DNA of 64,000 nt, taken from Candidatus Omnitrophota bacterium (lineage in GTDB: Bacteria > Omnitrophota > Gorgyraeia > Gygaellales > Profunditerraquicolaceae). Below are positions 7,509 through 55,835 of this stretch, in pieces (position 1 is the first letter of the stretch; each line of letters starts with the position of its first letter). A model generated the notes under the pieces. That model saw nothing but the letters and a program-made list of their open reading frames with translations, was not told where the DNA came from and did not search any database. The position numbers were made by a program, and so were the translations under genes. Where the stretch lies: the NCBI GenBank assembly GCA_049275655.1, contig JBASUY010000020.1, positions 2,651 to 66,650 of the forward strand, written 5' to 3'.

Positions 7509-7535
7509 TTATAAATAAAAAAAAATTCTTGTCAA
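7507..7535 (-). promoter_or_regulatory. sigma70-type promoter of groESL
   Basis: On the minus strand: TTGACA (7535..7530), 17-nt spacer, ATAATT (7512..7507). Immediately followed by CIRCE. Confidence 0.6.
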
Positions 7536-37847: not shown

Positions 37848-38636
37848 TTACCGCCTCCTGTATGCTTCCAAAAACTTATCGCAATAAATATGCTTATTTA
37901 AGATTAAATCAGTAGTTATCGCCATATCCATCAACTCGCTGTCTAAAGGGTCAAGTATCGCTGCGTCTAAACCAAAGGCCATAGCCATGGCTAAAAAGGT
38001 ACGGTTAATTATTGGCCTGTTTAATGCGCCCTGAGAAACATTACTTAATCCTATTATAGTATTAGGGGCTGGGTCTGCAATTAATTTAAACTCTCTTATA
38101 GATTCTAATATATCCTTTTCTTGCCCTTGCGCTATATTAACCGGCATAACTATCGGGTCAAGATATAATTCATCCGTAGAAAAATTATTTTCAATACAAT
38201 AAGAGACTATCTGCGCTGCTAATTCTAAACGCTGGTCTTTAGTTTGAGGTATTCCGTCTGCGCTTATGGTCAGGGCTATTAACTTAGCTTTGTTTTCCTT
38301 AGCCAAAGGCACTAATTGGTTAAGTTTATCTAAATCCGCTGTAGTAGAATTTATGATTGCGTTTTCTTTAACCAGTTTAAGCGCTTCTTTAATTACCTCT
38401 ACCTTGCTTGAATCAATGCAAATAGCCTTATCAGTAACTTCTTGAATAGTTTTAATTAGCCAAAGGGTATCTTTAATTGGGTCTTTTGAGGCAGGACCAC
38501 AATTTACATCTAATGCGTCTGCTCCGGCTTTAATCTGATTTAAAGCAGAGTCCTGAATAACTTGCTTATCTTTTTCGGCTACAGCCTTGCCTATCTTCCC
38601 GTACATCCCGTTGATTAACTCTCCGATAATAAGCAT
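37848..38636 (-). CDS. acsE: Methyltetrahydrofolate:corrinoid iron-sulfur protein methyltransferase (pterin-binding, AcsE/MeTr)
   Basis: 262 aa. MLIIGELINGM...NCGP...INSTT...GLSNVSQG...NRTFLAMAMAFGLDAAI is collinear with the Moorella AcsE pattern. Confidence 0.8.
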   Translation of the reverse strand: MLIIGELINGMYGKIGKAVAEKDKQVIQDSALNQIKAGADALDVNCGPASKDPIKDTLWLIKTIQEVTDKAICIDSSKVEVIKEALKLVKENAIINSTTADLDKLNQLVPLAKENKAKLIALTISADGIPQTKDQRLELAAQIVSYCIENNFSTDELYLDPIVMPVNIAQGQEKDILESIREFKLIADPAPNTIIGLSNVSQGALNRPIINRTFLAMAMAFGLDAAILDPLDSELMDMAITTDLILNKHIYCDKFLEAYRRR

Positions 38637-38660
38637 CCTTGATCTCCCTTTAAAAGACTC

Positions 38661-39596
38661 TTAAGAAAAGAGGCTATCTATATACCTTTCGATTTCTTTT
38701 ACTGCCGTAGGATGGCGCATTACTAATAGATTAGCTCCTGCCTGCACTAAAGCAAGGACAGTTAGAATCTCCCAGATTATCCCTTGCCTTACATCCTCTG
38801 CTTTTGCCTCTTTAGCCCTCCAAGCCTCTTGCCCTGCCAAACAAAGAAAAGGGCTAAAAAGTGTTTTATCTCCTGACAGAGCAGCTAAACGCGCCCTCTC
38901 CATAATAGAATAAGCATATTCTAAGCCATACCCTAAAGCGCCTATAGTAGGGTCAATAACTATCCTCTCTAAAGGCATCCCCATATCTGAAATTAGGATA
39001 TTAAGTTGTTTAGCGATATTAATATCAATAGGTGATTCTGCGATAAGGCTATGGCCTCCTGCCAATGCGCCTGCTGTTACTGCCTTATAGTTATTTTGGG
39101 TTGCGTTACCGATTAAACACCGCTCATTTTTTGCTGCCTCGCTACAGGCAGGCAAAAGGATATTATCCTTTTCATCATCTCCGCAGCCGAGAATAATCAA
39201 AGGCAAATCAAATTTGCGTAAAAAATCTTTAACAAGGTTAGCTTCCTCTGAAGGAGATTTATCTTCAAACTCAGGATGCGCGCCTTTTAGCCTTAGGCAG
39301 ATAATCTTAGCATTATATTCTTTAATACATTTATCTGCCCACAAAAAAGGATCAGATAAAACATCGCCAAAAGCTTTGGTTAATTCTTCCGGCCAATCTT
39401 TAGGATAAGTATCCCATACTTCAAAGATAGGGTATGGTTTATTAGGGATAACACCCTCTTTAAAAAGCAAAGGCAAAGAACGCTCCCCTCCTATCTTAAC
39501 CTTAAAAGCGCGGCTGCCCCCTTCTTCTTTGGTTGCTCCGATAGTTATCTCCGAGACAGATCCACTCCATTTTTCATGCATTAATTGAATCGCCAT
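38661..39596 (-). CDS. acsD: Corrinoid iron-sulfur protein small subunit (AcsD / CFeSP delta)
   Basis: 311 aa. LGNATQNNYK, SPIDINIAKQLNIL, VIDPTIGALGYGLEYAYSIMER and WRAKEA match AcsD closely. Confidence 0.8.
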   Translation of the reverse strand: MAIQLMHEKWSGSVSEITIGATKEEGGSRAFKVKIGGERSLPLLFKEGVIPNKPYPIFEVWDTYPKDWPEELTKAFGDVLSDPFLWADKCIKEYNAKIICLRLKGAHPEFEDKSPSEEANLVKDFLRKFDLPLIILGCGDDEKDNILLPACSEAAKNERCLIGNATQNNYKAVTAGALAGGHSLIAESPIDINIAKQLNILISDMGMPLERIVIDPTIGALGYGLEYAYSIMERARLAALSGDKTLFSPFLCLAGQEAWRAKEAKAEDVRQGIIWEILTVLALVQAGANLLVMRHPTAVKEIERYIDSLFS

Positions 39597-39638
39597 ACAA
39601 CTCCTCTAAACTTCATTTTAGCAATAAATTTATCTTAA

Positions 39639-41231
39639 TCAATTGTTTTTTATGCTGGGGAATCTGCCTAAATCCGTATGAGGAAAAAATAATGCCGCCA
39701 TGTATTCATTCATATATTCCGCGTCAGTAGAAAGGTCAAAATAAGTTATCTGGCGCGCTAATTCTTCTGCTCTCTTTAGCTTTTCAGCCGATAGTAGCAC
39801 TTCTTTGGCCCCGGCTAAAGCGCTATTACCTAAAAAAGAAAAAATACTTCTGTCGGCATCCGGTAAAAGCCCTATGGCTATAGCGCTATCAATATCCAAA
39901 GATGTTCCAAACCCTCCTGAAATAAAAATATTCTCTAAATCAGTTACCTTAAAATTCATATGCTTTAGGAGTATGGATGCGGCAGAGTAAATAGCTGCCT
40001 TAGCGCGTTTTAAATTATCTAAATCCGCTTCGCTGACCGTTATCTCTTCTTTTGTCAATGAATCTTCTTTAAAACAGACTATAAATTCCTTGCCAAAGTC
40101 AGAATTCCTTATTCTCTTATCCTCTTTAATAATCTTACCCCCCTTATCAATTATTCCGCAAGCAAGCATGTTGCGCAAGAGGCTTATGTATCCTGACCCG
40201 CAAATTCCTAATGGTTGCGCTCCCCCAATAACTTTATAATCAATAGATAAGTTTTTTGGGTCTATCGTTACCTTTTCTATTGCCCCCGGCAATGCGCGCA
40301 TTCCATTTTTTAATCCGCTACCCTCAAAAGCAGGCCCTGCAGAAGCAGCAGAGGAAACAATAAACTCTTCATTGCCTAAAGCTATCTCTCCATTAGTCCC
40401 TATATCTATAAGCATACTAATCCCCTTTTTCATATAAAGCCCGCTGGATAGTATCCCGGCGACAGTATCCCCTCCTACATAGCTGGCTACTGCCGGGATA
40501 GAATAAATAACCCCGGAAGGGTTAATATCTATGCCTATCTCTTTAGCCTTTAAAGAAGGAAGGTTATCTTTAAGAGGGTCAAAAGAGTCCCTACGTATAT
40601 AGGCAGGATTCTTTTTAAGTAGAAGATGAATCATTGTAGTATTCCCTGCACAAACCATAAAATCAACATCTTTAATATTCACCTTATTCTCTAAGGCCAA
40701 GGCTCGTATTAATTGATTAATAGTAAAAACAACTGCCCTTTGAAGCTTATCTAAGCCATCGCTTCCTGTAGCGTATATTATGCGCGTGATTATATCCGCA
40801 CCAAAAGAAGCCTGCCTATTATAACTTGTTTTAACCCCTAAAGAGCTCTTTTCATTAATATTGATTATTTCAGCTGAAATTGTAGTCGTCCCTATATCTA
40901 CGGCAAGCCCAAAATCTCCTGAAATATAGGTAGCACTCTCTTGGTTATCAGATAATTGAAAAAGATTATTTTCTAATTGCGGGCTATCTAACCTAGACTC
41001 TAAAGGAATATCCACATCTAAGTTGCTGTTTATAGTAGCCTGACATGCCAAGCAACTCTTCTTCCCTGAAGTTTTTCTTATAAATACCCTACATTTCCCA
41101 CACAATCCATCTCCTGCGCAAATTGAGTTAATATATATGCCGCCTGATAAAGCAGCGGAGAGTATCGTTGTCCCCTCTAAAACCTCAACGCTTTTATTAT
41201 AAGGATAAAATGTCACTTTATATTTTTTCAT
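39639..41231 (-). CDS. Corrinoid activation/regeneration protein (RACo-like): N-terminal 2Fe-2S ferredoxin + ASKHA ATPase
   Basis: 530 aa. N-terminal plant-type ferredoxin cysteines (CAGDGLCGKCRV...C), C-terminal ASKHA-fold glycine-rich segments, and conserved genomic placement between acsD and acsC. Confidence 0.65.
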   Translation of the reverse strand: MKKYKVTFYPYNKSVEVLEGTTILSAALSGGIYINSICAGDGLCGKCRVFIRKTSGKKSCLACQATINSNLDVDIPLESRLDSPQLENNLFQLSDNQESATYISGDFGLAVDIGTTTISAEIININEKSSLGVKTSYNRQASFGADIITRIIYATGSDGLDKLQRAVVFTINQLIRALALENKVNIKDVDFMVCAGNTTMIHLLLKKNPAYIRRDSFDPLKDNLPSLKAKEIGIDINPSGVIYSIPAVASYVGGDTVAGILSSGLYMKKGISMLIDIGTNGEIALGNEEFIVSSAASAGPAFEGSGLKNGMRALPGAIEKVTIDPKNLSIDYKVIGGAQPLGICGSGYISLLRNMLACGIIDKGGKIIKEDKRIRNSDFGKEFIVCFKEDSLTKEEITVSEADLDNLKRAKAAIYSAASILLKHMNFKVTDLENIFISGGFGTSLDIDSAIAIGLLPDADRSIFSFLGNSALAGAKEVLLSAEKLKRAEELARQITYFDLSTDAEYMNEYMAALFFPHTDLGRFPSIKNN

Positions 41232-41255
41232 TATATATTATGTATATGGGTATAT

Positions 41256-42584
41256 TTACAGATTTTTAAGAAAAGAAGGTATGCCTGCAGCTTCTTTTGG
41301 CCCTACGGTTATATTAAAACCTGAAGCTTCCTTTAAATCTCCACTCATCACAGAGACATAGCCGGGAATAATCAAGCAGTTATGCGAGATTAATCCCCTT
41401 ACTTTATATTTTTCAAGAGAATCAGCTATTCTCTTAGGGGTAAATTTTTCTGCTGCCCAGGCAGTTAATACGGACATCCCTTCGGTATCAATGCTTACGA
41501 TATACGAAGGGACTTTACTTGCCTCAACTTCTCCTAAGACCGTAAAATAAGAAAGAGAAAAGTTTGTGGTAACTAACACCGGAGACTTATTACTAACAGC
41601 GCCTACAGAATAAACCTTGGGCTCTATCTGTAATGGTTTTTGCGGGTCGGTATAAATATTTTGACGCAAGGTAAGCAGAGGCAATACTTCAAATACGCTA
41701 AAATTACTGATTAATACGATGCTGGCATACTTTGTAATATAAGTAGCTGCCTCCATTGCTTCCTCATAAGGCGATTTTGCCGAAACTATTACTAAAAAAG
41801 GAAATCCTAAAGAGCGTTGATTTTTTTTAAGCGCAAGCCTTCTGGCTTGGGTTAAATTCCATATATTATCAGAGATGGAGCTTCCCTTAATCTCTAATAC
41901 TATATCCTTATACCCAGACTTATTAAGCTCTCCGGCTAAGCCTGATAAGGTATCTAAGGAATCTGCAGAAACCACCAAAGAGGCTTCTATATCCTTAATT
42001 GCTTTTGCTATCGCAATTAAATCTTCTTTTCCATTATAATAGACTAACGGTTTTTTATCTTTTAAATAAGCTAAAGACCCTTCAAGGGCTTTTAAATCTT
42101 TAAAGATTATTCCTATGGCAAGTTGCGTTATATCCGAAACCAACCTGACTACCTCAATAAACCTTTGAGCGCCTCCTTTTTGCTCTACAACTATGATATT
42201 GGCTTTTAGGGTTTGGCCGACGCGCTCAAATCCCAAGGCATTTATTTTATCAACCCTGTCCTTTATTTCGTTATCCGTCAAGGAGTCCTCTAAAATAAAA
42301 CCTAAAGCACAGGGATTATGGAACTTCTCTTCGTGGCGAAAAAGAACAGTCTCCCCTCCTACTTTAAAGCTGTAATCTTTATTTTTAAGGATGATTGTTT
42401 TTATAGGCGGCTCTGATTGAGATTCAATTATATCCTTAGATTCCTTGCTTACATAAGGGCATTTATCTATAGTCGTTGACTTTTTAACTAATTGCATGGC
42501 AAAGGCAAGGCAAGTAGCAAAGCCGCATTCACGACAGTTAGTCTTTGGTAGAAGTTTATAAATATCCAAGCCTGATAAAGCCAT
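41256..42584 (-). CDS. acsC: Corrinoid iron-sulfur protein large subunit (AcsC / CFeSP gamma)
   Basis: 442 aa. N-terminal 4Fe-4S motif CRECGFATCLAFA...C with a TIM-barrel and a C-terminal B12-binding-like region. Confidence 0.8.
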   Translation of the reverse strand: MALSGLDIYKLLPKTNCRECGFATCLAFAMQLVKKSTTIDKCPYVSKESKDIIESQSEPPIKTIILKNKDYSFKVGGETVLFRHEEKFHNPCALGFILEDSLTDNEIKDRVDKINALGFERVGQTLKANIIVVEQKGGAQRFIEVVRLVSDITQLAIGIIFKDLKALEGSLAYLKDKKPLVYYNGKEDLIAIAKAIKDIEASLVVSADSLDTLSGLAGELNKSGYKDIVLEIKGSSISDNIWNLTQARRLALKKNQRSLGFPFLVIVSAKSPYEEAMEAATYITKYASIVLISNFSVFEVLPLLTLRQNIYTDPQKPLQIEPKVYSVGAVSNKSPVLVTTNFSLSYFTVLGEVEASKVPSYIVSIDTEGMSVLTAWAAEKFTPKRIADSLEKYKVRGLISHNCLIIPGYVSVMSGDLKEASGFNITVGPKEAAGIPSFLKNL

Positions 42585-42611
42585 AATAATTTTAAGTACT
42601 AATTAAAAAGG

Positions 42612-42926
42612 TTATACCTTAAATATTATTGTTAACAACAAGAAAATGAGAATCCCTGAAAAGATGTAAAAATCATAAAAATAGATAAAATCATCTATTC
42701 TCTCTTTCAAAGAAACCGGCTTTTCGGGGGGTTCTTTAGTTTTAGCTAAAGAAGAGAGGGATGACCTTCGGTACTCCTGAATCTGCTCCTTTTTAAACCT
42801 TAAAAAAACGCCTCCTACTTTATAAGCCGGGATTAACCCGGCTTGAGCAAGGTCCATAACTTCTTTTTCTGATATATTTAAAAGTATGGATACTTCCCTT
42901 ACAGTCAAAAGCTTCTCTTCGCTCAT
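42612..42926 (-). CDS. Membrane-anchored excisionase-type HTH (HTH_17) protein
   Basis: 104 aa. N-terminal LLTVREVSILLNISEKEVMDLAQAGLIPAYKVGGVFLRF is an Xis-family HTH. C-terminal FIYFYDFYIFSGILIFLLLTIIF is a TM helix. Confidence 0.55.
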   Translation of the reverse strand: MSEEKLLTVREVSILLNISEKEVMDLAQAGLIPAYKVGGVFLRFKKEQIQEYRRSSLSSLAKTKEPPEKPVSLKERIDDFIYFYDFYIFSGILIFLLLTIIFKV

Positions 42927-42937
42927 ATAGCCTTATT

Positions 42938-43441
42938 TTATTTTTCTATTTTACCCGAAGCAACCCAAGAATCAATTGCCTTCCTCTCAAACTTCCATTC
43001 ATCCCCTTCTTTATGTCCGGGGACTCTCCCGGCATTAGCCCATTCCATAATGGAATTTAAATCAACCTCAAGATATCTGGCAAGCTCATTGGCATTAAGA
43101 AAATCATGAAGCATAGAGCATCTACCTTCAAAAACCGCTCCTTCTGCTATATTTAATTTTACCGGATATATATCCCCTTCAAGTACGGCCGAAGGCAAAA
43201 GAGTGAGCCTCTCTTTAGCAGTAACCTTACCTTTTACTTTCCCACCTATAATAATATTATCCCCTATAATATTTGCATTAACAAAAGCTGTTTGCCCTAT
43301 AGTTAGATTCCCCTTTGCCTCAAGGTTACCCTCAAAATTTCCGTTAATCCTTAAATTAACCGGGTCTTTAAAGCTTAAAGTGCCCTGCATGGAGGCATCA
43401 ACATCTAAAACCTTTAGTTCTGCTTTTTTCTTAAAAGCCAT
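42938..43441 (-). CDS. Bactofilin-domain protein fused to C-terminal excisionase-type HTH
   Basis: 167 aa. Residues ~20-110 are a bactofilin beta-helical repeat (LTIGQTAFVNANIIGDNIIIGGKVKGKV...). The C-terminus LARYLEVDLNSIMEWANAGRVPGHKEGDEWKFER is an HTH_17. Confidence 0.65.
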   Translation of the reverse strand: MAFKKKAELKVLDVDASMQGTLSFKDPVNLRINGNFEGNLEAKGNLTIGQTAFVNANIIGDNIIIGGKVKGKVTAKERLTLLPSAVLEGDIYPVKLNIAEGAVFEGRCSMLHDFLNANELARYLEVDLNSIMEWANAGRVPGHKEGDEWKFERKAIDSWVASGKIEK

Positions 43442-43499
43442 CTTTACCTCCTTTAAGTTTTATTCGTTACTTAAACTTTTTTCCTCTAACCACTCTTTA

Positions 43500-43528
43500 T
43501 ATATATCAAAAAGATACAGAGATGTCAA
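43500..43528 (-). promoter_or_regulatory. sigma70-type promoter for the bactofilin-HTH / acs transcription unit
   Basis: Minus strand: TTGACA (43528..43523), 17 nt, TATATA (43505..43500). Followed by SD AAAGGAGGTAAAG and ATG at 43441. Confidence 0.5.
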
Positions 43529-43542
43529 TTTTATTTATCTTT

Positions 43543-44547
43543 CTAGCTTAAATCCATATTTAAATATAAATTAGACTGCTTCCCCTTTTTAAATAATTGA
43601 TAACCTAACCCCGCTACCATCGCCGCATTATCCATAGAATACGCCAATGGAGGAAAATAACAGGTTAAACTATTTTTTCCAGCTGCATTAAGGAATTTCT
43701 CCCTAAGCCTCTTATTGGCTACAACCCCGCCCCCCAAAAGCAAAATCCGTGACTTTTTAAGCTTACAGGCAAGAAAGGATTTTTTTATTAAAACATCAAT
43801 AACCGTATCCTGAAAAGAAGCGCAAATATCTTTTATCAAAATATCCCTCTTCTTTCTCTTCTTAGAGGTATTTTTATGCAAATAATTTAAGGCTGCGGTT
43901 TTAATTCCGCTAAAACTAAAATCAAACTTTCCCTTAGTCCCGGAGCAATTAAACTTTATGCTTTTTGGGTCCCCCTTTAAAGCAAACCGCTCAATCTCAG
44001 GCCCTCCCGGATACCCTAACCCTAAAATCTTAGCTACTTTATCAAAAGCCTCTCCGCAGGCGTCATCATAAGTTTGCCCTAAAGTGTGTATCCTATCAAA
44101 ATCTCGGATATAAAAAAGGCTCGTATGCCCGCCTGAGGCAACTAATGAAATAAAGGGGAATTTAATGTTATTCTTTCTTTGATTTAATAAATTAGCGTAA
44201 AAGTGGCTGTGTACATGATTTACCCCCAAAAGAGGTATCTTCAAACTTAAGCTAAGGGCCTTGGCAAATGAGATACCTACTAAAAGTGAGCCTGATAACC
44301 CGGGCCCGGAGGTTACGCTAATTAACCCTATATCCTTTAATTTAACGCGCGCCTCTTTTAAGGCGCTTGCTACTACCTCTGATATCGTCTCAAGCTGCAT
44401 GCGTGAGGCAATCTCAGGTATAATCCCTCCGTATTTGCTATGAAATTTTATACTGGAAGCTACCTCATTAGATAAAACCTTGCTGCCGTTACTTACCACA
44501 GCAGCAGAGGTCTCATCGCAAGAAGTCTCAATCCCCAAGACTATCAT
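43543..44547 (-). CDS. tsaD: tRNA N6-adenosine threonylcarbamoyltransferase
   Basis: MIVLGIETSCDETSAAVV is the Kae1/TsaD N-terminus. 334 aa. Confidence 0.9.
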   Translation of the reverse strand: MIVLGIETSCDETSAAVVSNGSKVLSNEVASSIKFHSKYGGIIPEIASRMQLETISEVVASALKEARVKLKDIGLISVTSGPGLSGSLLVGISFAKALSLSLKIPLLGVNHVHSHFYANLLNQRKNNIKFPFISLVASGGHTSLFYIRDFDRIHTLGQTYDDACGEAFDKVAKILGLGYPGGPEIERFALKGDPKSIKFNCSGTKGKFDFSFSGIKTAALNYLHKNTSKKRKKRDILIKDICASFQDTVIDVLIKKSFLACKLKKSRILLLGGGVVANKRLREKFLNAAGKNSLTCYFPPLAYSMDNAAMVAGLGYQLFKKGKQSNLYLNMDLS

Positions 44548-49776: not shown

Positions 49777-52700
49777 ATGATTAAAGAAACTAACAAAAAA
49801 CCAAAGTATCTTCTTAATAAAGAGGGCGCATTTGTAATTAAAAATTATAATTTCTCTAAGCCCTTCTCTAGTTTTTTACCCGGGATAGCCGGTAGATACG
49901 GCATACCTATGTGGGCCTTCTATGTAAACCGCGCTCAATGTATTTCAAGCTTTGGGATAAAAGATAAAGACCACGCGATACTAGAGTTCTTCCCCGCTAA
50001 TAAGGCATGGCAATCTGTTTCTACGCACGGGTTCAGGACTTTCTTAAAAGTCAGTAAAAATAATAAGGACTTTTTTTATGAGCCCTTCCATAACGGATTT
50101 ACGAATCTTTCTTATAAAATAACAAATAGGATATATATCCTGCCTTATGAATTAACTATTGAAGAAGAGAACAAAACCTTAAATCTTGTTACCAGAATTA
50201 AATATTTTAATATCCCCAATGACAACTACGCCGGATTAGCTAGGATAGTAGAACTAAAAAACCTGAATAAAAACTTAATAAAAATAGAGCTCCTTGACGG
50301 GCTGCCTCAAATTGTCCCTTATGGAACTAATAACTATTGCCTTAAAAAAATGTCGCGCACGATTGAGGCGTGGATGGGGGTTGAAAACCTTAAGAATAAC
50401 GCCCCCTTTTATAGGCTTACAGTTGACCCTGCTGACCGGCCAGAGATAGTCCACATAAAAGAAGGCAACTTTTATTTAGGTTTTAGTTCTGAAGCCAAAA
50501 AAACAAAGCTAATCAAACCTATCATTAATCCGGATAATATATTCGGCCCGATTACTGATTTTTCTTGCCCAAGGTTATTCTTAAGCAAAGATTTTTCTCC
50601 CCCGCAAAATGAAACTATACAAAGTAAAACCCCTTCTGCTTTTATATACTCTTCTTTTAGCCTAAAGCAAAATGAAAATAAAAAGCTCTACGCTCTAAGC
50701 GGCTATATGCGTAGCCTAAAAGACCTTAACAACTCCTTAAAGAGGCTCTCTTCTCCTGCCTACATTGAATCTAAAAGAATTGAAAATATGAAATTAATAA
50801 ATAGCTTACTTGAAAATGTCAGGACAAACTCATCTTCAAGAGAGTTTAACCTCTATTCTCAACAGACTTACTTAGATAATATATTACGCGGCGGGTATCC
50901 GGTTATGTTTGCGCAAAACAAGCCTTTCTATCTTTATTCGCGCAAGCACGGCGATCCTGAAAGAGATTACAATAAGTTTCAAATTTCTCCAACATACCTC
51001 TCCCAAGGCAATGGCAATTACCGGGACTTAAACCAAAACCGCAGGAACGAAGTTTGGTTTAATCCTAAGATAAAAGAAAAAGACTTACTCTCGTTATTTA
51101 ATCTTATCCAACTCGACGGATTTAACCCTTTAGTGACAAAGGGTACGCGTTTTATCTTACAGGATGCGCAAAAGATACGAACAAAACTCGCTCAATTTAC
51201 TAAAAAAGAAAACGTAGATAAAATCCTTCTTGCCTTTACAGGAAAAAGGTTTTCTCCTGGTGAGATAATTCATTTTATTGAAGATAATCAAATAAAACTA
51301 ACCTCTTCTTATGATGAGTTGTTAGATATTATTGTCTCTTGTTCCTTAGAGATAAATGAAGCAGAACATTTAGAAGGTTTTTGGATTGACCATTGGCATT
51401 ATAATTTAGACCTTCTTGATAGCTACCTTGCTATTTACCCGGAAAAAGCAAAAGAGATATTCTTTGAAAAAAGGGAATTTACCTTCTTTGATAATGACAG
51501 AGTAGTAAAACCAAGGAAAGAAAAATATATTCTTCATAATGGCCTCCCGCGTCAACTACATGCAGTTACTATAGACCTTAATAAAAAAGAGATCCTAAGC
51601 AAAAGGAAAACTGCTCCTAATATAGCGCGCACAGAGGGCGGTTTTGGGGATATTTATCAAACAACCCTCATAAATAAGCTTCTATGCCTCTTGGTTAATA
51701 AGTATGCCTCCCTTGACTCTTTTGGCGTAGGAGTTGAGATGGAATCAGATAAGCCTAATTGGTTTGATTCTTTAAATGGGCTACCTGCTATATTCGGCTC
51801 TTCCCTCTCAGAGACCTTTGAGCTAAAACGATTAGCGCTCTATATCAAAAACTCTATAAATTTAACCCCTACAGAAGGTATCTTCGTTACGGAAGAGATT
51901 TACAGGCTTTTAGAAAAATTATACGTTTTAACTAAAGAATATTTTAATAAGACACTAAGTGACTTTCAATGGTGGGATGAGACGCATTTAGCGAAAGAGT
52001 CTTATTGGTCAGATACAAAAATGGGAGTTAAGGGAAAAGAGTTAAATATACCTTCAAAGGACTTAAGCCAGATCGTTAATTTATTTATAAAGAAAATTGA
52101 TATAGGCATAGATAAGGCTTGGGATAAAAAATCCTCTGTATATAGAGGTTATTTTTTCCATGAAGTTACCAAATACGAAAGGCTAAAAGATAATTTCATA
52201 AAACCTCTATCTTTTAAGCAGATTACCTTGCCCTTATTCCTTGAGCCGCAGATGCATGGCTTACGCCTTGCAGAAAACCAAGCTAAAGCTAAAGCCCTAT
52301 ATAAAGGGGTAAAAAGAAGCGCTCTCTTTGATAAAAAACTATCTATGTATAAAGTAACTGCTTCGCTTAAACCTATGCCTGAGGAGATTGGTAGATGCAG
52401 GGTATTCCCTTCCGGCTGGCTTGAGAATGAATCTGTATGGCTACATATGGAGTATAAGTATCTCCTTGAATTACTAAAACAAGGGCTTTATGAAGAGTTT
52501 TACCAGGATTTTAAAAAAGCCCTTATACCTTTTCAGGACCCAAAAAGATACGGGCGAAGCATCCTTGAAAACTCTTCTTTCCTTGTAAGTAGCGCTTTCC
52601 CTGATAAAACTTTACATGGAAATGGGTTTGTTGCCCGGCTATCCGGCTCTACAGCAGAATTTTTAGATATCTGGCTTAAGATTAACCTTGGGATAAAACC

Positions 52701-52995
52701 CTTCTTTATAACCGGTAATAATACCCTTAACCTCTGCTTTAAACCTATATTAAATGCCTGGTTATTTGATAAAAATGGAAATTATTCTTTTAATTTCTTA
52801 AGCAAGATAAAGGTTGCCTATCACAATCCTGCCAAAAAGAATACCTACGGCAAAAACTCAGCTAAAGTCCAATATATAACTTTTAAAGACAACAACGGGC
52901 TTTTAATCAAAATAAACTCAGATACAATCAAATCCCCTTACGCAGAACAAATCCGCTTAGGTAAAATCAATCAGATAGATATCCATTTAAAATAA
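49777..52995 (+). CDS. Large cytoplasmic protein, putative six-hairpin glycoside hydrolase/phosphorylase (GH94-like)
   Basis: 1072 aa, the only plus-strand gene. No Walker or nuclease motifs. Rich in W/Y/F/N/D. The N-terminal LPGIAGRYGIPMWAFYVNRAQC resembles the GH94 sNTAGGYSFYRDA segment and HGFRTF resembles cRHGLGYT. The C-terminal beta-sandwich-like tail supports a glycoside family. The family assignment is low confidence. Confidence 0.35.
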   Translation: MIKETNKKPKYLLNKEGAFVIKNYNFSKPFSSFLPGIAGRYGIPMWAFYVNRAQCISSFGIKDKDHAILEFFPANKAWQSVSTHGFRTFLKVSKNNKDFFYEPFHNGFTNLSYKITNRIYILPYELTIEEENKTLNLVTRIKYFNIPNDNYAGLARIVELKNLNKNLIKIELLDGLPQIVPYGTNNYCLKKMSRTIEAWMGVENLKNNAPFYRLTVDPADRPEIVHIKEGNFYLGFSSEAKKTKLIKPIINPDNIFGPITDFSCPRLFLSKDFSPPQNETIQSKTPSAFIYSSFSLKQNENKKLYALSGYMRSLKDLNNSLKRLSSPAYIESKRIENMKLINSLLENVRTNSSSREFNLYSQQTYLDNILRGGYPVMFAQNKPFYLYSRKHGDPERDYNKFQISPTYLSQGNGNYRDLNQNRRNEVWFNPKIKEKDLLSLFNLIQLDGFNPLVTKGTRFILQDAQKIRTKLAQFTKKENVDKILLAFTGKRFSPGEIIHFIEDNQIKLTSSYDELLDIIVSCSLEINEAEHLEGFWIDHWHYNLDLLDSYLAIYPEKAKEIFFEKREFTFFDNDRVVKPRKEKYILHNGLPRQLHAVTIDLNKKEILSKRKTAPNIARTEGGFGDIYQTTLINKLLCLLVNKYASLDSFGVGVEMESDKPNWFDSLNGLPAIFGSSLSETFELKRLALYIKNSINLTPTEGIFVTEEIYRLLEKLYVLTKEYFNKTLSDFQWWDETHLAKESYWSDTKMGVKGKELNIPSKDLSQIVNLFIKKIDIGIDKAWDKKSSVYRGYFFHEVTKYERLKDNFIKPLSFKQITLPLFLEPQMHGLRLAENQAKAKALYKGVKRSALFDKKLSMYKVTASLKPMPEEIGRCRVFPSGWLENESVWLHMEYKYLLELLKQGLYEEFYQDFKKALIPFQDPKRYGRSILENSSFLVSSAFPDKTLHGNGFVARLSGSTAEFLDIWLKINLGIKPFFITGNNTLNLCFKPILNAWLFDKNGNYSFNFLSKIKVAYHNPAKKNTYGKNSAKVQYITFKDNNGLLIKINSDTIKSPYAEQIRLGKINQIDIHLK

Positions 52996-53026: not shown

Positions 53027-55798
53027 TTAAAATCTGCGGCGATAATATACGCGGACTATGTGTGCGGTATCTATTGTTAGCAGCGCTCCACCCGTAGGAT
53101 CATAGAGCCTTCCGATAGAGCTTGAGTTTCCTTCTCCATACTGGATAGTAAACTCATCATCCTTAGTAGGCATATATCTAAGCTCTGTAAAAATATTGTG
53201 GTGACCGGTTGTTTTAGAGTTCCCATCTCTAACTAAAAGGGGATTCTTCCATAGGGAATAAGTGTATTTAAAACAGAGCCCTAACTTATCTGTAGGCTCA
53301 TAAACCATCTGTAAGCCAAAGTGGTTCATATTATCTGAGTTTTGCCCTGCCATCTTAAACTCATTATAAGTATAATCAAGGTAGATATTGAATTTTTCTA
53401 AAGGAGAGATATCTAAGCCTGCTTTGTAAATATTATAGAACGGATAAGGCGCCTGTGGAAAGAATTCTTGATCATAAAGAAACCTGCCCCAACCGCGATA
53501 CGTATTGCCATATTCAGAATAAGTTCTCCAGAACCCCGCGTCATTAAATACGCCGTTAGGAAAATTACCATAAGCTAAATAATAGTCATTCGTCCTTTCC
53601 CAGACAATATTTGCCTTTAACCACTCTACAAAAGCGTATTCTAACCCTATAGAACCTGTTTTAATGCTTGGATCAGCTCCATCAGGGACAACTTTATTAG
53701 TTAAACCTATATCAGTGTCAATATCAAAATTAAAAGGGTCTATCTCTCCTTTGGTCTTTGGTAGGTCATGATAAAGGAGTAAACCTTTGAGGGTAAGTTT
53801 TTCAAATGGCTTAAACATTATCTCATCACGCACAACAGTCTCAACATACTTGCCATTATTCTTATGCACATTACGTACATCAAAAAGATTTGAGAAGGTA
53901 TCTTCATAAAAAGTCTCAAATCTGAAACCAATAGTACTTCTATCTTTATCTATCCCATCTCCTATACGCGTAGCGTCAAGCTCATCTTGATTAACATAGG
54001 CAGAGCTTAAACCTGGGGTAAAATACCCAAAGTTCTTTCTAAAAGAGATATGCCTTGACCAAAAATCATCATCCCGCGTATCACGGTAATTAGAAAGAGG
54101 GGCATCAAAACCCCTATCCATCCTGGCAATAAAAAATTTACTCTTTGCCATAAATGATTCGTCTTTAGCTATTTTAGATTCATTATAAGCATCAGTAAGA
54201 ACTATAAGCTCTTTTTGAGGATAACGGTTAATAAGCGTAAAATAATAAGCATTTCCGCGTGCCTTAGTCTTGTATTGGGAGTCAAGCTGATCATAGTAAG
54301 ATTGCGACCTTAAGACTTCTGCTTGAGCCTTAACTCCTTCAATAATCTCATAGCTTAAATCCATCCCACCTACATAATTTGTGCTATCAACCTTGTTTTT
54401 ATCATTAATATTTAATCCGGTGCGTGTAGTAAATGTAGCCCCTAAAGATAGATTATCCGCAGCAAAGTGCTTTAACCTACTTGCAGTAATATAATTATCC
54501 ACCTCTTCATAATCCTGCCAGAGATCTTTAGGTGTGGCTACAGTAGTAGTAAATAACGTCTTCTCTGCTGAGCCAAGCTCAAAAGAAAACCCCCTTAAAG
54601 CAGTAAGGTATTTTCCTGTGCTATCCCGTATTGTAGAATAGGTATCATCCCAGATACCCTTAGTATAATCCAATGCACCCGGGTCTGAGTTATATCTACC
54701 CGGAGAATACCTTTTAAGCCAGGGACTGGGTGCCCACCATTTATGGTGATTAGTTATACGCAAAGGATCGTCTGAAGTAAATGCCTGATCCTGATAAGCA
54801 ATCGGGAAAACCCGGAATTTCACTCCGGCATCCTCATTCATATAATCAAGCCAAAATTCCCTAACCGGTTGAAACCTACGATGAATTTTCGTTTCAGGAA
54901 TTACAAAAATGTTGCCAAAAGAAGAGGTAACTGTAGTAGGAAGCACCCTTCCGTTAACTACCTTTATTTCAGGAAGGTTAAATACATCCCCGCTAATTGA
55001 GGTAAAAACCCTATCATTTAAAGTATAGCCTGTATTCGACCAATACCTTAATTCAACATCAGCAGTATCCCCCCATATCCCCCCGGTAATATTAAATTTG
55101 CTGCTCTTACCAGTAAAACTCCAAGGATCAATGGTTATGTTACTATGAAAACTAAATCCGGATTTATTCTCTGTATCAAGGTTTATTGAAAGGCTATCAT
55201 AAACCCTGGTATCAAATGTATTCCATCTTTGATTATAAGCCGCATCTGATAAAACGCGCCAGTTCCTTTCATTTAAATCATAGTTAGCGCGCTTCCATAT
55301 AAAATTACCCGGAGACTCAACCCCAAAAGAAAGCATCGCCTCTCCGGTTACACGTATACCGCCTAATAAAAAACCCCTTGTTTTATCTTCAGTTAAAGGT
55401 TCAATTGTATCCTTAGGCTCTAAATCAGAGAATGCCTTCTCCATCGCCTCTTCTTTAGTATGTATATTATTCAAATCTTTGCTATTAGGGACAAGGGCCT
55501 CTTCCTGGGGATGGGTTTGGGGTTCTTTTGGAATATAAGATTGTGGCTTTTGTAATTGGTCCTTATTTTTAAAGATACGGCTTACATATTCTTTGGCAGT
55601 TTTATTTTCAGGGTCTGCAGCAAGGACTTTTTGAAACTCAGATAAGGCATCATCGTATTTTTCAAGGTTATAAAGCTCTACCCCTAATTCACACAAATAT
55701 TCTACTGCCAAAGTCTCTGCTATAGATAAAGACGGAATTAAAAAAAATAAAGCGCCTAAAAGCATAAGCGCCATAACAAGAATATATTTATTTTTCAT
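53027..55798 (-). CDS. Putative outer-membrane beta-barrel protein with N-terminal TPR-like hairpin
   Basis: 923 aa. Signal peptide MKNKYILVMALMLLGALFFLIPSLSIA. One TPR-like helical pair (LYNLEKYDDALSEFQKVLAADPEN), an acidic linker, then ~800 aa of aromatic, Gly, Asn and Asp-rich beta-type sequence ending in a C-terminal Phe (VRVYYRRRF). Confidence 0.5.
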   Translation of the reverse strand: MKNKYILVMALMLLGALFFLIPSLSIAETLAVEYLCELGVELYNLEKYDDALSEFQKVLAADPENKTAKEYVSRIFKNKDQLQKPQSYIPKEPQTHPQEEALVPNSKDLNNIHTKEEAMEKAFSDLEPKDTIEPLTEDKTRGFLLGGIRVTGEAMLSFGVESPGNFIWKRANYDLNERNWRVLSDAAYNQRWNTFDTRVYDSLSINLDTENKSGFSFHSNITIDPWSFTGKSSKFNITGGIWGDTADVELRYWSNTGYTLNDRVFTSISGDVFNLPEIKVVNGRVLPTTVTSSFGNIFVIPETKIHRRFQPVREFWLDYMNEDAGVKFRVFPIAYQDQAFTSDDPLRITNHHKWWAPSPWLKRYSPGRYNSDPGALDYTKGIWDDTYSTIRDSTGKYLTALRGFSFELGSAEKTLFTTTVATPKDLWQDYEEVDNYITASRLKHFAADNLSLGATFTTRTGLNINDKNKVDSTNYVGGMDLSYEIIEGVKAQAEVLRSQSYYDQLDSQYKTKARGNAYYFTLINRYPQKELIVLTDAYNESKIAKDESFMAKSKFFIARMDRGFDAPLSNYRDTRDDDFWSRHISFRKNFGYFTPGLSSAYVNQDELDATRIGDGIDKDRSTIGFRFETFYEDTFSNLFDVRNVHKNNGKYVETVVRDEIMFKPFEKLTLKGLLLYHDLPKTKGEIDPFNFDIDTDIGLTNKVVPDGADPSIKTGSIGLEYAFVEWLKANIVWERTNDYYLAYGNFPNGVFNDAGFWRTYSEYGNTYRGWGRFLYDQEFFPQAPYPFYNIYKAGLDISPLEKFNIYLDYTYNEFKMAGQNSDNMNHFGLQMVYEPTDKLGLCFKYTYSLWKNPLLVRDGNSKTTGHHNIFTELRYMPTKDDEFTIQYGEGNSSSIGRLYDPTGGALLTIDTAHIVRVYYRRRF

Positions 55799-55807
55799 AA
55801 TATTTTT

Positions 55808-55835
55808 ATTATATATAGGTAAAGCCCTTTGTCAA
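55808..55835 (-). promoter_or_regulatory. Consensus sigma70 promoter directly abutting the OMP gene start (leaderless configuration)
   Basis: Minus strand: TTGACA (55835..55830), 16 nt, TATAAT (55813..55808), 9 nt, ATG at 55798. Confidence 0.5.

Follow-up and report, generated by a model that had tools for sequence, protein, structure and literature searches.

What might a cytoskeletal polymer do with a DNA-binding-type fold built into each of its subunits? Bactofilins are described as a beta-helical core with short disordered tails that recruit clients, and in the one case where they are known to be linked to DNA, that of Myxococcus, distinct adaptor proteins make the connection. The question is raised by two adjacent genes in a 64,000-nucleotide stretch (hereafter, the window) of a Candidatus Omnitrophota genome (assembly GCA_049275655.1, contig JBASUY010000020.1, positions 2,651 to 66,650). 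One gene encodes a protein of 167 amino acids (aa), named BacH in this analysis, in which a bactofilin core is followed by a folded helix-turn-helix (HTH) domain of the HTH_17 family; the other encodes a protein of 104 aa (hereafter, the partner) in which an HTH_17 domain is followed by a hydrophobic C-terminal helix. The initial annotation suggested that the pair could be a DNA- or nucleoid-tethering module. We find that BacH is a genuine bactofilin, that the HTH_17 folds of both proteins are genuine, and that their combination, which is undescribed, is conserved across the phylum; a role in DNA or nucleoid tethering is plausible but unproven.

Both open reading frames (ORFs) were confirmed on the minus strand at the positions first annotated (Table 1), and profile searches and structure prediction agree with the architecture that had been proposed for BacH, a bactofilin core with a C-terminal HTH_17 domain. 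BacH matched PF04519 (Bactofilin) with 89 bits (cut-off 27.9) over model positions 2–97 of 98 and PF12728 (HTH_17) with 37.9 bits (cut-off 27), while the partner matched PF12728 with 40.1 bits; the E-values of these matches exclude chance. The profile TIGR01764 ('excise', cut-off 28.8 bits) was passed by the partner and gave 24.8 bits, below the cut-off, for BacH. In the AlphaFold2 model of BacH, with a mean predicted local distance difference test score (pLDDT) of 85.7, an all-beta core at aa 20–110 (pLDDT >90) is followed by a beta-alpha-alpha-beta-beta-alpha winged helix at aa 114–161, and aa 1–8 are predicted to be disordered; the predicted template modeling score (pTM) is 0.63, at which the domains have no defined orientation to each other. 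Foldseek matched the core to the bactofilins BacA (2n3d; template modeling score (TM) 0.84, root-mean-square deviation (rmsd) 2.2 Å) and TtBac of Thermus (6rib; TM 0.77). A database protein 100% identical to BacH is annotated as a 'polymer-forming cytoskeletal protein' of a Candidatus Omnitrophota bacterium.

BacH also keeps sequence hallmarks of bactofilins. Its F104 aligns with the phenylalanine of the C-terminal polymerization interface, F105 in TtBac and F130 in BacA, which has a role in bactofilin polymerization (PMC12448750), and the position is F or L in 14 relatives. The N-terminus, MAFKKK, in which M1, F3, K5 and K6 are invariant in the alignment of BacH sequences (A1), resembles the global bactofilin membrane-targeting consensus MFSKKKK, whose Phe and Lys residues are essential (PMC12448750), and by this resemblance the tail is a putative membrane-targeting peptide. 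The linker between the beta-helix and the HTH domain measures about 5 residues in the main BacH clade and 10–25 residues in distant family members.

For the partner, the reading of a 104-aa protein with an N-terminal HTH_17 domain and a single C-terminal hydrophobic helix is borne out by Pfam, hydropathy and AlphaFold2 alike. A Pfam scan at E-values up to 1 returned only HTH_17 and a weak MerR_2 match, with no DUF4004. The AlphaFold2 model (pLDDT 75.3), built from an alignment (A2) shallower than one that includes distant partners, comprises a winged helix at aa 6–58, disorder at aa 60–68 and helices at aa 73–83 and 85–103. A 19-residue stretch from aa 86 has a mean Kyte–Doolittle hydropathy of 2.4, with only 2–3 residues beyond it, and a hydrophobic C-terminal helix is present in every partner examined. 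Just before it lies a juxtamembrane motif (D-F-x-Y-F-N-D-F-Y) that is as conserved as the partner HTH domain: D79, F80, Y82, F83, D85, F86 and Y87 are invariant in alignment A2, and the motif is kept in distant partners in forms such as DLLAYNDFY, DFWRYNGFY, DLFYFNDFY, DFWKYSDIY and NNDFY.

The two HTH domains, initially described as paralogous, are homologous at the profile level (hhalign 98%, E 4.6e-14, 24% identity), but BLASTP of one against the other returned no alignment, so that the description is true only in a distant sense; for the same reason we rejected a recent duplication of one HTH domain as their origin. They have in common a helix-2 motif, [IV]-M-[ED]-[WL], and both models fit the MerR/Xis winged-helix fold (alpha1-alpha2-beta-beta-alpha3), with top structural matches at rmsd 1.1–2.4 Å. 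Foldseek placed BldC of Streptomyces closest to both, at 1.5 Å for BacH, which also matched RdfS, Pukovnik Xis and RacA, and at 1.1–1.2 Å (TM 0.84–0.88) for the partner, which next matched Xis, RacA, MerR regulators and the centromere-binding domain of pSK1 Par. In profile searches of solved structures, RacA was the best match to the BacH HTH domain (E 4.5e-5), followed by BldC.

The fusion is widespread. A word-indexed protein search returned 2060 clusters at 90% identity, both Pfam domains were found in 120 of 120 clusters among the matches listed, and a pattern scan of GTDB species representatives located relatives in 466 genomes. An exhaustive HMMER search of 50%-identity representatives added about 25 full-length fusion clusters at 24–59% identity, most with a linker of 10–25 residues and, where names are given, assigned to Omnitrophota or to a 'PVC group bacterium'. 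Public annotations of the fusion vary among 'polymer-forming cytoskeletal protein', 'CcmA' and 'excisionase family DNA binding protein'. We rejected a frameshift or assembly artefact as the source of the fusion, because its 165–171-aa architecture is shared by more than 2000 clusters and by 466 species genomes; the apparently non-fused close matches (P0261, P0263, P0274, P0277 and P0280) have low-complexity C-termini and look like frameshifted copies. Several metagenome-assembled genomes labelled Margulisiibacteriota, Pacebacteria or Planctomycetales (including L020 and L085) carry the full Omnitrophota-type synteny around BacH, and these labels are therefore probably generic or the contigs mis-binned.

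At 80 GTDB loci, chosen and ranked by similarity to BacH, the BacH and partner genes were adjacent in every case, with a median spacer of 14 nt and spacers of at most 50 nt at 73 loci. The gene order ctp, polysaccharide deacetylase, tsaD, (mgtC), BacH, partner, (larB, sometimes fmdE), acsC, RACo was likewise found at all 80. Mean identity over these loci was 78.5% for BacH, compared with 63.6% for TsaD, 59.5% for AcsC, 58.4% for Ctp and 56.7% for the partner; the lead of BacH is inflated somewhat by the ranking, yet the gap is large, and the module is under strong purifying selection. Adjacency also extends to 6 of 8 divergent sub-lineages, where the pair is set among altogether different genes, with SNase and tilS downstream of the pair in L087, greA and acpS as neighbours in L090, batD, TPR and mgtC genes upstream in L092, dnaE and a histidine kinase gene upstream in L094, and genes for SPOR and PDZ proteins upstream in L096, the sixth being L102. 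The partners in these sub-lineages all have the winged HTH, a variable linker, the aromatic/acidic juxtamembrane motif and the C-terminal hydrophobic helix, and conservation of the pair as neighbours, whose absence the initial annotation would have taken as a refutation, is thus supported.

The two sampled divergent lineages that lack an HTH partner are L098 and L101. L098 holds the most distant fusion (24% identity), preceded by a gene with a Volactin hit and a gene for a ParA/MinD-like ATPase (L098 1–4850) and followed by a gene for a signal-peptide or transmembrane protein, with no HTH protein there. In L101 (3001–4399), the BacH homologue P0425 has an HTH domain with a canonical basic recognition helix, SMVRKWAREG, and a basic wing; the product of the gene downstream is 234 aa in length and joins an N-terminal membrane helix to a long coiled coil that is highly basic, and a STAS-domain gene lies upstream. 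Other relatives carry different domains on a BacH-like core (about 47–50% identity): P0272 (253 aa) ends in a PilZ domain (E 6.7e-10), and P0284 (176 aa) in hydrophobic, transmembrane-like segments, which suggests that this bactofilin clade uses its C-terminus as an exchangeable effector slot.

In the literature we found no description of a bactofilin–HTH fusion or of a gene pair of the BacH–partner type. In a recent survey of 14,337 bactofilins the family is portrayed as a core that bears unstructured tails, and the sole variants noted are those with an N-terminal transmembrane segment (PMC12448750), and the Omnitrophota genome compendium makes no mention of bactofilins or of a cytoskeleton. 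The host phylum consists of ultra-small, uncultured bacteria, probably predators or parasites, of whose cell biology almost nothing is known, and in it the HTH-bearing bactofilin is almost always encoded beside a membrane-anchored copy of the same fold. Over hundreds of Omnitrophota species the pair ranks with the most conserved genes of its surroundings.

We propose that the pair is an operon-level module that couples a membrane-associated bactofilin scaffold to DNA, with the partner as a tail-anchored winged-helix adaptor that tethers the DNA; this is the explanation we favour, though we would put it somewhat below an even chance. BacH would form a membrane-bound polymer through its putative membrane-targeting peptide and beta-helix and, because each subunit of such a polymer would display one MerR/Xis-type winged helix, would array these helices along the membrane. 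The partner, co-translated from the same transcript, would sit in the same membrane through its C-terminal helix and carry, at the end of a flexible linker some 20 residues long, a second winged helix that is better suited to DNA and would be the likelier primary contact with it. The acidic winged helix of BacH might then join that of the partner in a head-to-tail array on DNA, as the subunits of BldC, Xis and RacA do, or dock on the partner. The outcome would be a multivalent device for tethering DNA to the membrane or for positioning it, one that serves the purpose of RocS or of RacA–DivIVA with different parts.

Several lines of comparison favour tethering, in addition to the domain matches, the bactofilin hallmarks of BacH, the conserved adjacency of the two genes and the high identity of BacH across genomes. 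The nearest solved relatives of both HTH domains are DNA-organizing winged helices (RacA, BldC, Xis, RdfS and pSK1 Par). RocS, RacA and Par, all of which tether DNA, have in common a MerR-type winged helix, an oligomerizing element and an anchor at the membrane or the pole, and BacH appears to hold modules of these three types in one chain, with a membrane peptide as the anchor; this likeness of the whole protein is one of analogy and not of homology. RocS, a chromosome-partitioning protein of Streptococcus pneumoniae, tethers DNA to the membrane; besides a MerR-type winged HTH and a domain for self-association, it has a membrane anchor that depends on multivalency (PMC11500499). The same three functional modules would be present in BacH, and the partner combines a winged helix with a linker and a predicted membrane helix, a likeness in module content. 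RocS is a single polypeptide that runs from winged helix through coiled coil/DUF536 to a C-terminal amphipathic helix, whereas in BacH the order is reversed (membrane peptide, bactofilin, winged helix), the oligomerizing element is a beta-helical polymer, the job would be split over two proteins and the anchor of the partner is a full hydrophobic helix. RacA, the chromosome anchor of Bacillus subtilis sporulation, coats DNA with a MerR-like winged helix, its subunits touching only weakly, and attaches the DNA to a scaffold at the membrane (PMC4914108); it resembles the BacH HTH domain in profile and structure and differs in using a coiled coil and binding DivIVA. BldC and the Xis proteins are small MerR/Xis winged helices that assemble head-to-tail into filaments on DNA (PMC5859096). 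BldC is a free transcription factor of 68 residues, and the BacH pair has no recombinase context.

The partner-less lineage L101 bears on the same question, because a canonical basic HTH domain in a BacH homologue that has no partner suggests that DNA binding is the underlying activity of the family, and this variant looks like an all-in-one version of the module. The partner HTH domain, with a net charge of about +1, like RacA, retains an invariant R43 (equivalent to BldC R48) and conserved K36 (BldC R41), K45/K46, K21 (BldC K26 and RacA K15) and R10. Judged by these residues, among which R43, K36, K45/K46 and K21 speak for tethering, it is a reasonable DNA-binding candidate.

Other observations weigh against a DNA–membrane tether, and most of them concern the HTH domain of BacH, whose sequence points partly away from simple tethering. 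BldC contacts DNA through K26, T29, R30, K33, H46 and R47, and its R30A and H46E mutants lose binding (PMC5859096); RacA contacts bases through K15 and R19 alone, and both are completely conserved among its homologues (PMC4914108). The six BldC positions are occupied in BacH by N129, M132, E133, N136, E148 and W149, so that equivalents of K26, R30, K33, H46 and R47 are all missing, and N129, E133 and N136 also stand at the positions of RacA K15, R19 and K22; K150 occupies the position of BldC R48. The position of BldC R30 is Glu, Gln or Asp in 34 of 40 BacH-family sequences, the wing tip reads G-D-E-W, which is acidic, where BldC has G-G-H-R, and the net charge of the domain is about −4 in the main clade (mean −3.6 over 40 family members) compared with about +6 for BldC. 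In P0302, a related three-repeat HTH_17 protein, Tyr-Lys and a basic wing are found where BacH has M-E and an acidic one, and the acidic surface of the BacH HTH domain is therefore a derived feature. In the partner, too, the residue aligned with BldC R30 and RacA R19 is acidic (D25). Basic DNA-contact residues are accordingly absent from BacH and present in part in the partner. DNA binding by the acidic HTH domain of BacH cannot be assumed, given this lack, and we regard the domain as an atypical DNA-binding candidate that could bind DNA cooperatively, dock on the partner or mimic DNA. Charge complementarity between the two domains showed no clear trend across sub-lineages, in a sample of 7 pairs only. 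Beyond the HTH domains, the linker of about 5 residues in the main clade might let the HTH domain obstruct the C-terminal polymerization face, the charges that flank the hydrophobic tail of the partner do not clearly follow the positive-inside rule, the choice of the 80 loci by BacH similarity flatters the conservation of BacH, and no DNA target motif turned up, although no search aimed at binding sites was made.

An alternative that we consider rather unlikely is that the winged helices have been re-purposed for protein contact and that DNA is not involved. The partner would then act as a membrane adaptor or client in the manner of RodZ or PbpC, docking on the BacH polymer either by contact between the two HTH domains or by way of its conserved aromatic juxtamembrane helix, and the pair would nucleate or anchor a membrane skeleton that shapes very small cells. 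RodZ, a bitopic protein with a cytoplasmic N-terminal XRE-type HTH domain and a large periplasmic domain, sets a precedent, because its HTH domain binds the actin-like MreB and not DNA; the partner differs from it in having an HTH_17 domain and essentially no extracytoplasmic part and in being paired with a bactofilin. The acidic recognition helix and wing tip of BacH and the aspartate of the partner at the key arginine position are what such an adaptor pair would lead one to expect, and the derived motif in helix 2 that the two domains share would fit recognition of each other or of one ligand other than DNA. That a MerR-like fold can bind a protein is seen in the complex of CbpM with the CbpA J-domain (3ucs), which was among the structural matches; B. 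subtilis bactofilins bind the protein BacR near its HTH domain (PMC13649987), and bactofilin clients such as PbpC bind through cytoplasmic juxtamembrane peptides (PMC12448750), beside which the equal conservation of the juxtamembrane motif and the HTH domain of the partner can be set. What makes DNA-free contact the less probable explanation is that BacH already has a membrane-targeting-like peptide, so that a separate anchor seems redundant, and that the partner has no extracytoplasmic or enzymatic domain, which leaves the module without an obvious output. In addition, the partner keeps several basic residues of the DNA-binding type, the closest relatives of both HTH domains all bind DNA, and the partner-less bactofilin of L101 has a canonical basic recognition helix.

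The only bactofilin–HTH partnership that we found described is that of BacR (YhbD, DUF4004), an HTH DNA-binding protein of B. subtilis whose gene shares an operon with those of the bactofilins BacE and BacF, and which binds both and is found at the membrane; the bactofilins pull BacR there and block its DNA binding (PMC13649987). By this model, one or both HTH domains of the BacH pair would be transcription factors whose access to DNA is gated by bactofilin polymerization or membrane state, for example in feedback on the operon or on envelope genes, and the acidic BacH domain would be a decoy that competes with DNA for the partner HTH domain. With net charges of opposite sign (about −4 and +1), the two domains would suit the roles of decoy and target, and BldC, the closest structural match, is a transcription factor (PMC5859096). 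BacR itself is separate from its bactofilins and has no membrane helix, whereas here one HTH domain is fused to the bactofilin and the second is membrane-anchored. We judge such a switch unlikely. Because the partner is anchored permanently, its relocation cannot be the regulated step. Domain scans found no DUF4004, sensor or effector domain in either protein, no conserved operator is apparent, with the upstream space coding (mgtC) in 75 of 80 relatives, and the very high conservation of a 167-aa polymer protein would be unusual for a local regulator.

A bactofilin that does not form filaments is less probable still, and we hold it very unlikely that the HTH domain caps the C-terminal interface and keeps BacH from growing beyond head-to-head dimers or short oligomers. 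BacH would then be a dimeric, MerR-like DNA-binding protein with the beta-helix in place of the usual coiled coil. The very short linker of the main clade (about 5 residues) would permit this, as would the undefined domain orientation (pTM 0.63), and classical MerR proteins need a dimerization element, which BldC, RacA and HTH_17 domains lack. Against these points stand the hydrophobic residue (F or L) maintained at interface position 104 throughout the family, the linkers of 10–25 residues in distant members, the lack of conservation of DNA-contact residues, and the conserved membrane-targeting-like N-terminus, since such peptides work only when arrayed on a polymer (PMC12448750). Lastly, a role in mobile elements or defence with an incidental bactofilin link, to which HTH_17 as the excisionase family, the TIGR01764 match of the partner and sub-threshold matches of both proteins to MAD1 of MADS (45.5 and 40.5 bits; PADLOC E 7e-5 and 1.5e-4) might point, can be set aside as having next to no likelihood: the MAD1 scores lie far below the curated NCBIfam cut-off of 80, PADLOC gave only 20–21 bits and no MADS partner genes lie in the neighbourhood, which led us to reject a MADS origin, while an excisionase or prophage origin was rejected on the syntenic housekeeping block (gatCAB, ctpB-like, tsaD, acs) in 80 of 80 genomes, the lack of any integrase, recombinase or methyltransferase nearby (no recombinase within 4–10 kb on either side) and the occurrence of the family in 466 GTDB species genomes.

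If the pair is a DNA–membrane tether, it would shorten the known route from bactofilins to DNA. In Myxococcus xanthus the BacNOP scaffold organizes chromosomal DNA (PMC5703909). The link to DNA is indirect there, through the adaptor PadC and through ParA and ParB–parS, whereas in BacH a DNA-binding-type fold is fused directly to the bactofilin; genes for ParB-, ParA- or PadC-like proteins were found neither within 6–10 kb on either side of the pair nor among the genes identified in the syntenic loci. The initial statement that bactofilins are usually partnered with ParAB/PadC-type adaptors proved too broad, for that arrangement is known from M. xanthus, and most characterized clients are cell-wall enzymes (PMC12448750, PMC10945521). 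A tether would further amount to minimal, motor-free chromosome positioning, convergent with RocS and RacA. The broader proposal, that Omnitrophota use a DNA-binding cytoskeleton in which a bactofilin polymer with a winged helix per subunit and a tail-anchored partner attach the chromosome to the membrane and organize or segregate DNA without a ParABS-type motor, is more doubtful than tethering as such; if correct, it would make BacH the first bactofilin to engage DNA itself and the pair a new class of two-protein chromosome–membrane tether. Should the pair turn out to be no tether, it would represent the conversion of a MerR/Xis winged helix into a cytoskeletal adaptor.

Table 1 Features of the BacH–partner locus, in window coordinates
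Feature	Position	Strand	Description and basis
BacH gene	42938–43441	−	167 aa, stop codon included; bactofilin–HTH_17 fusion; ORF call, Pfam, AlphaFold2
BacH N-terminal tail MAFKKKAE, aa 1–8	43418–43441	−	Resembles bactofilin membrane-targeting sequence; pLDDT <50
BacH bactofilin beta-helical core, aa 11–108	43118–43411	−	PF04519 E 2.5e-25; pLDDT >90; Foldseek matches BacA, TtBac
BacH C-terminal MerR/Xis-type winged HTH, aa 114–163	42953–43102	−	PF12728 E 2.2e-9; net acidic
BacH–partner spacer AATAAGGCTAT	42927–42937	−	11 nt, BacH stop codon to partner ATG
Partner gene	42612–42926	−	104 aa, stop codon included; HTH_17 and C-terminal membrane helix
Partner N-terminal winged HTH, aa 6–54	42765–42911	−	PF12728 E 4.4e-10; TIGR01764 35.3 bits
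Partner linker, aa 55–72	42711–42764	−	Variable, poorly conserved, predicted partly disordered; pLDDT <50 at aa 60–68
Partner juxtamembrane helix, aa 73–85	42672–42710	−	Conserved aromatic/acidic, ...DDFIYFYDFY; model helix aa 73–83
Partner C-terminal hydrophobic helix, aa 86–104	42615–42671	−	Predicted tail anchor; model helix aa 85–103, pLDDT 88–94
Shine–Dalgarno sequence AAAGGAGGT	43445–43453	−	4 nt before BacH ATG; read from sequence
Promoter-like site	43500–43528	−	TTGACA, 17-nt spacer ending in TGA, TATATA; TGn extended −10 context; read from sequence
TTGACA-N16–18-TATA occurrences	7510–7535, 43502–43528, 55810–55835	−	Pattern count in the window

The genes around the pair are housekeeping ones (ruvA, scpB, genes for the synthesis of aromatic amino acids, lepA, gatCAB, the gene of a CtpB-like protease, tsaD and the corrinoid iron–sulfur protein (CFeSP) genes of the acetyl-CoA pathway), and the window is no mobile element. 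As initially annotated, the gene next downstream of the partner, after a gap of 27 nt, is acsC (PF04060 and PF03599). It belongs to an acetyl-CoA-pathway cluster (37848–42584, minus strand) that comprises acsC, for the CFeSP large subunit, the RACo reductive activator, a second CdhD-family subunit and a pterin-binding methyltransferase, and this cluster adjoins the BacH pair directly in this genome because larB and fmdE are missing. A scan of 42400–43800 found no terminator-like hairpin, and read-through from a BacH promoter into the acs cluster is therefore possible. Elsewhere in the window, a 1072-aa ORF (49777–52995) that gave no Pfam match at E ≤0.01 is the sole long plus-strand gene, the rest being uniformly minus-strand, and a 923-aa protein (53027–55798, minus strand) has a single recognizable N-terminal TPR repeat and about 850 further residues that are unannotated.

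Relatives of the locus commonly contain additional genes. A gene for an mgtC-family membrane protein lies directly upstream of BacH in 75 of 80 relatives and also in the distant L092, and the module may include mgtC as a third, loosely attached member. Downstream of the partner, 71 of 80 relatives have a larB-like gene, and in 38 of 80 an fmdE-like gene comes after it (compare L019 3541–4023 and 4816–5487, and L027 3488–3943 and 4834–5912). All three are missing from this 64-kb window (sites 43442–43542 and 42585–42611), and in L007, its closest relative, mgtC and larB are likewise absent from the locus.

The short region upstream of BacH contains the Shine–Dalgarno sequence that had been noted, AAAGGAGGT, and a promoter-like site that begins 15 nt past the tsaD stop codon. 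The site had been called a consensus promoter; the arrangement TTGACA-17-TATATA is indeed present and its −35 hexamer is perfect, but the −10 hexamer matches 4 of 6 positions and 'consensus' is an overstatement. Our consensus scanner did not list the site because its −10 element lacks the conserved final T, at position 6. A TG one base upstream gives the −10 element an extended look. The same upstream space is occupied by mgtC in 75 of 80 relatives, which makes the promoter a local feature outside the conserved module. The window contains 3 instances of the pattern TTGACA-N16–18-TATA where 0.35 would be expected, all of them in intergenic gaps that precede minus-strand genes, and from this excess and placement a real promoter upstream of BacH is plausible. 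The three sites also hint at the use, in this Omnitrophota genome, of sigma-70-like promoters whose −35 element is strong.

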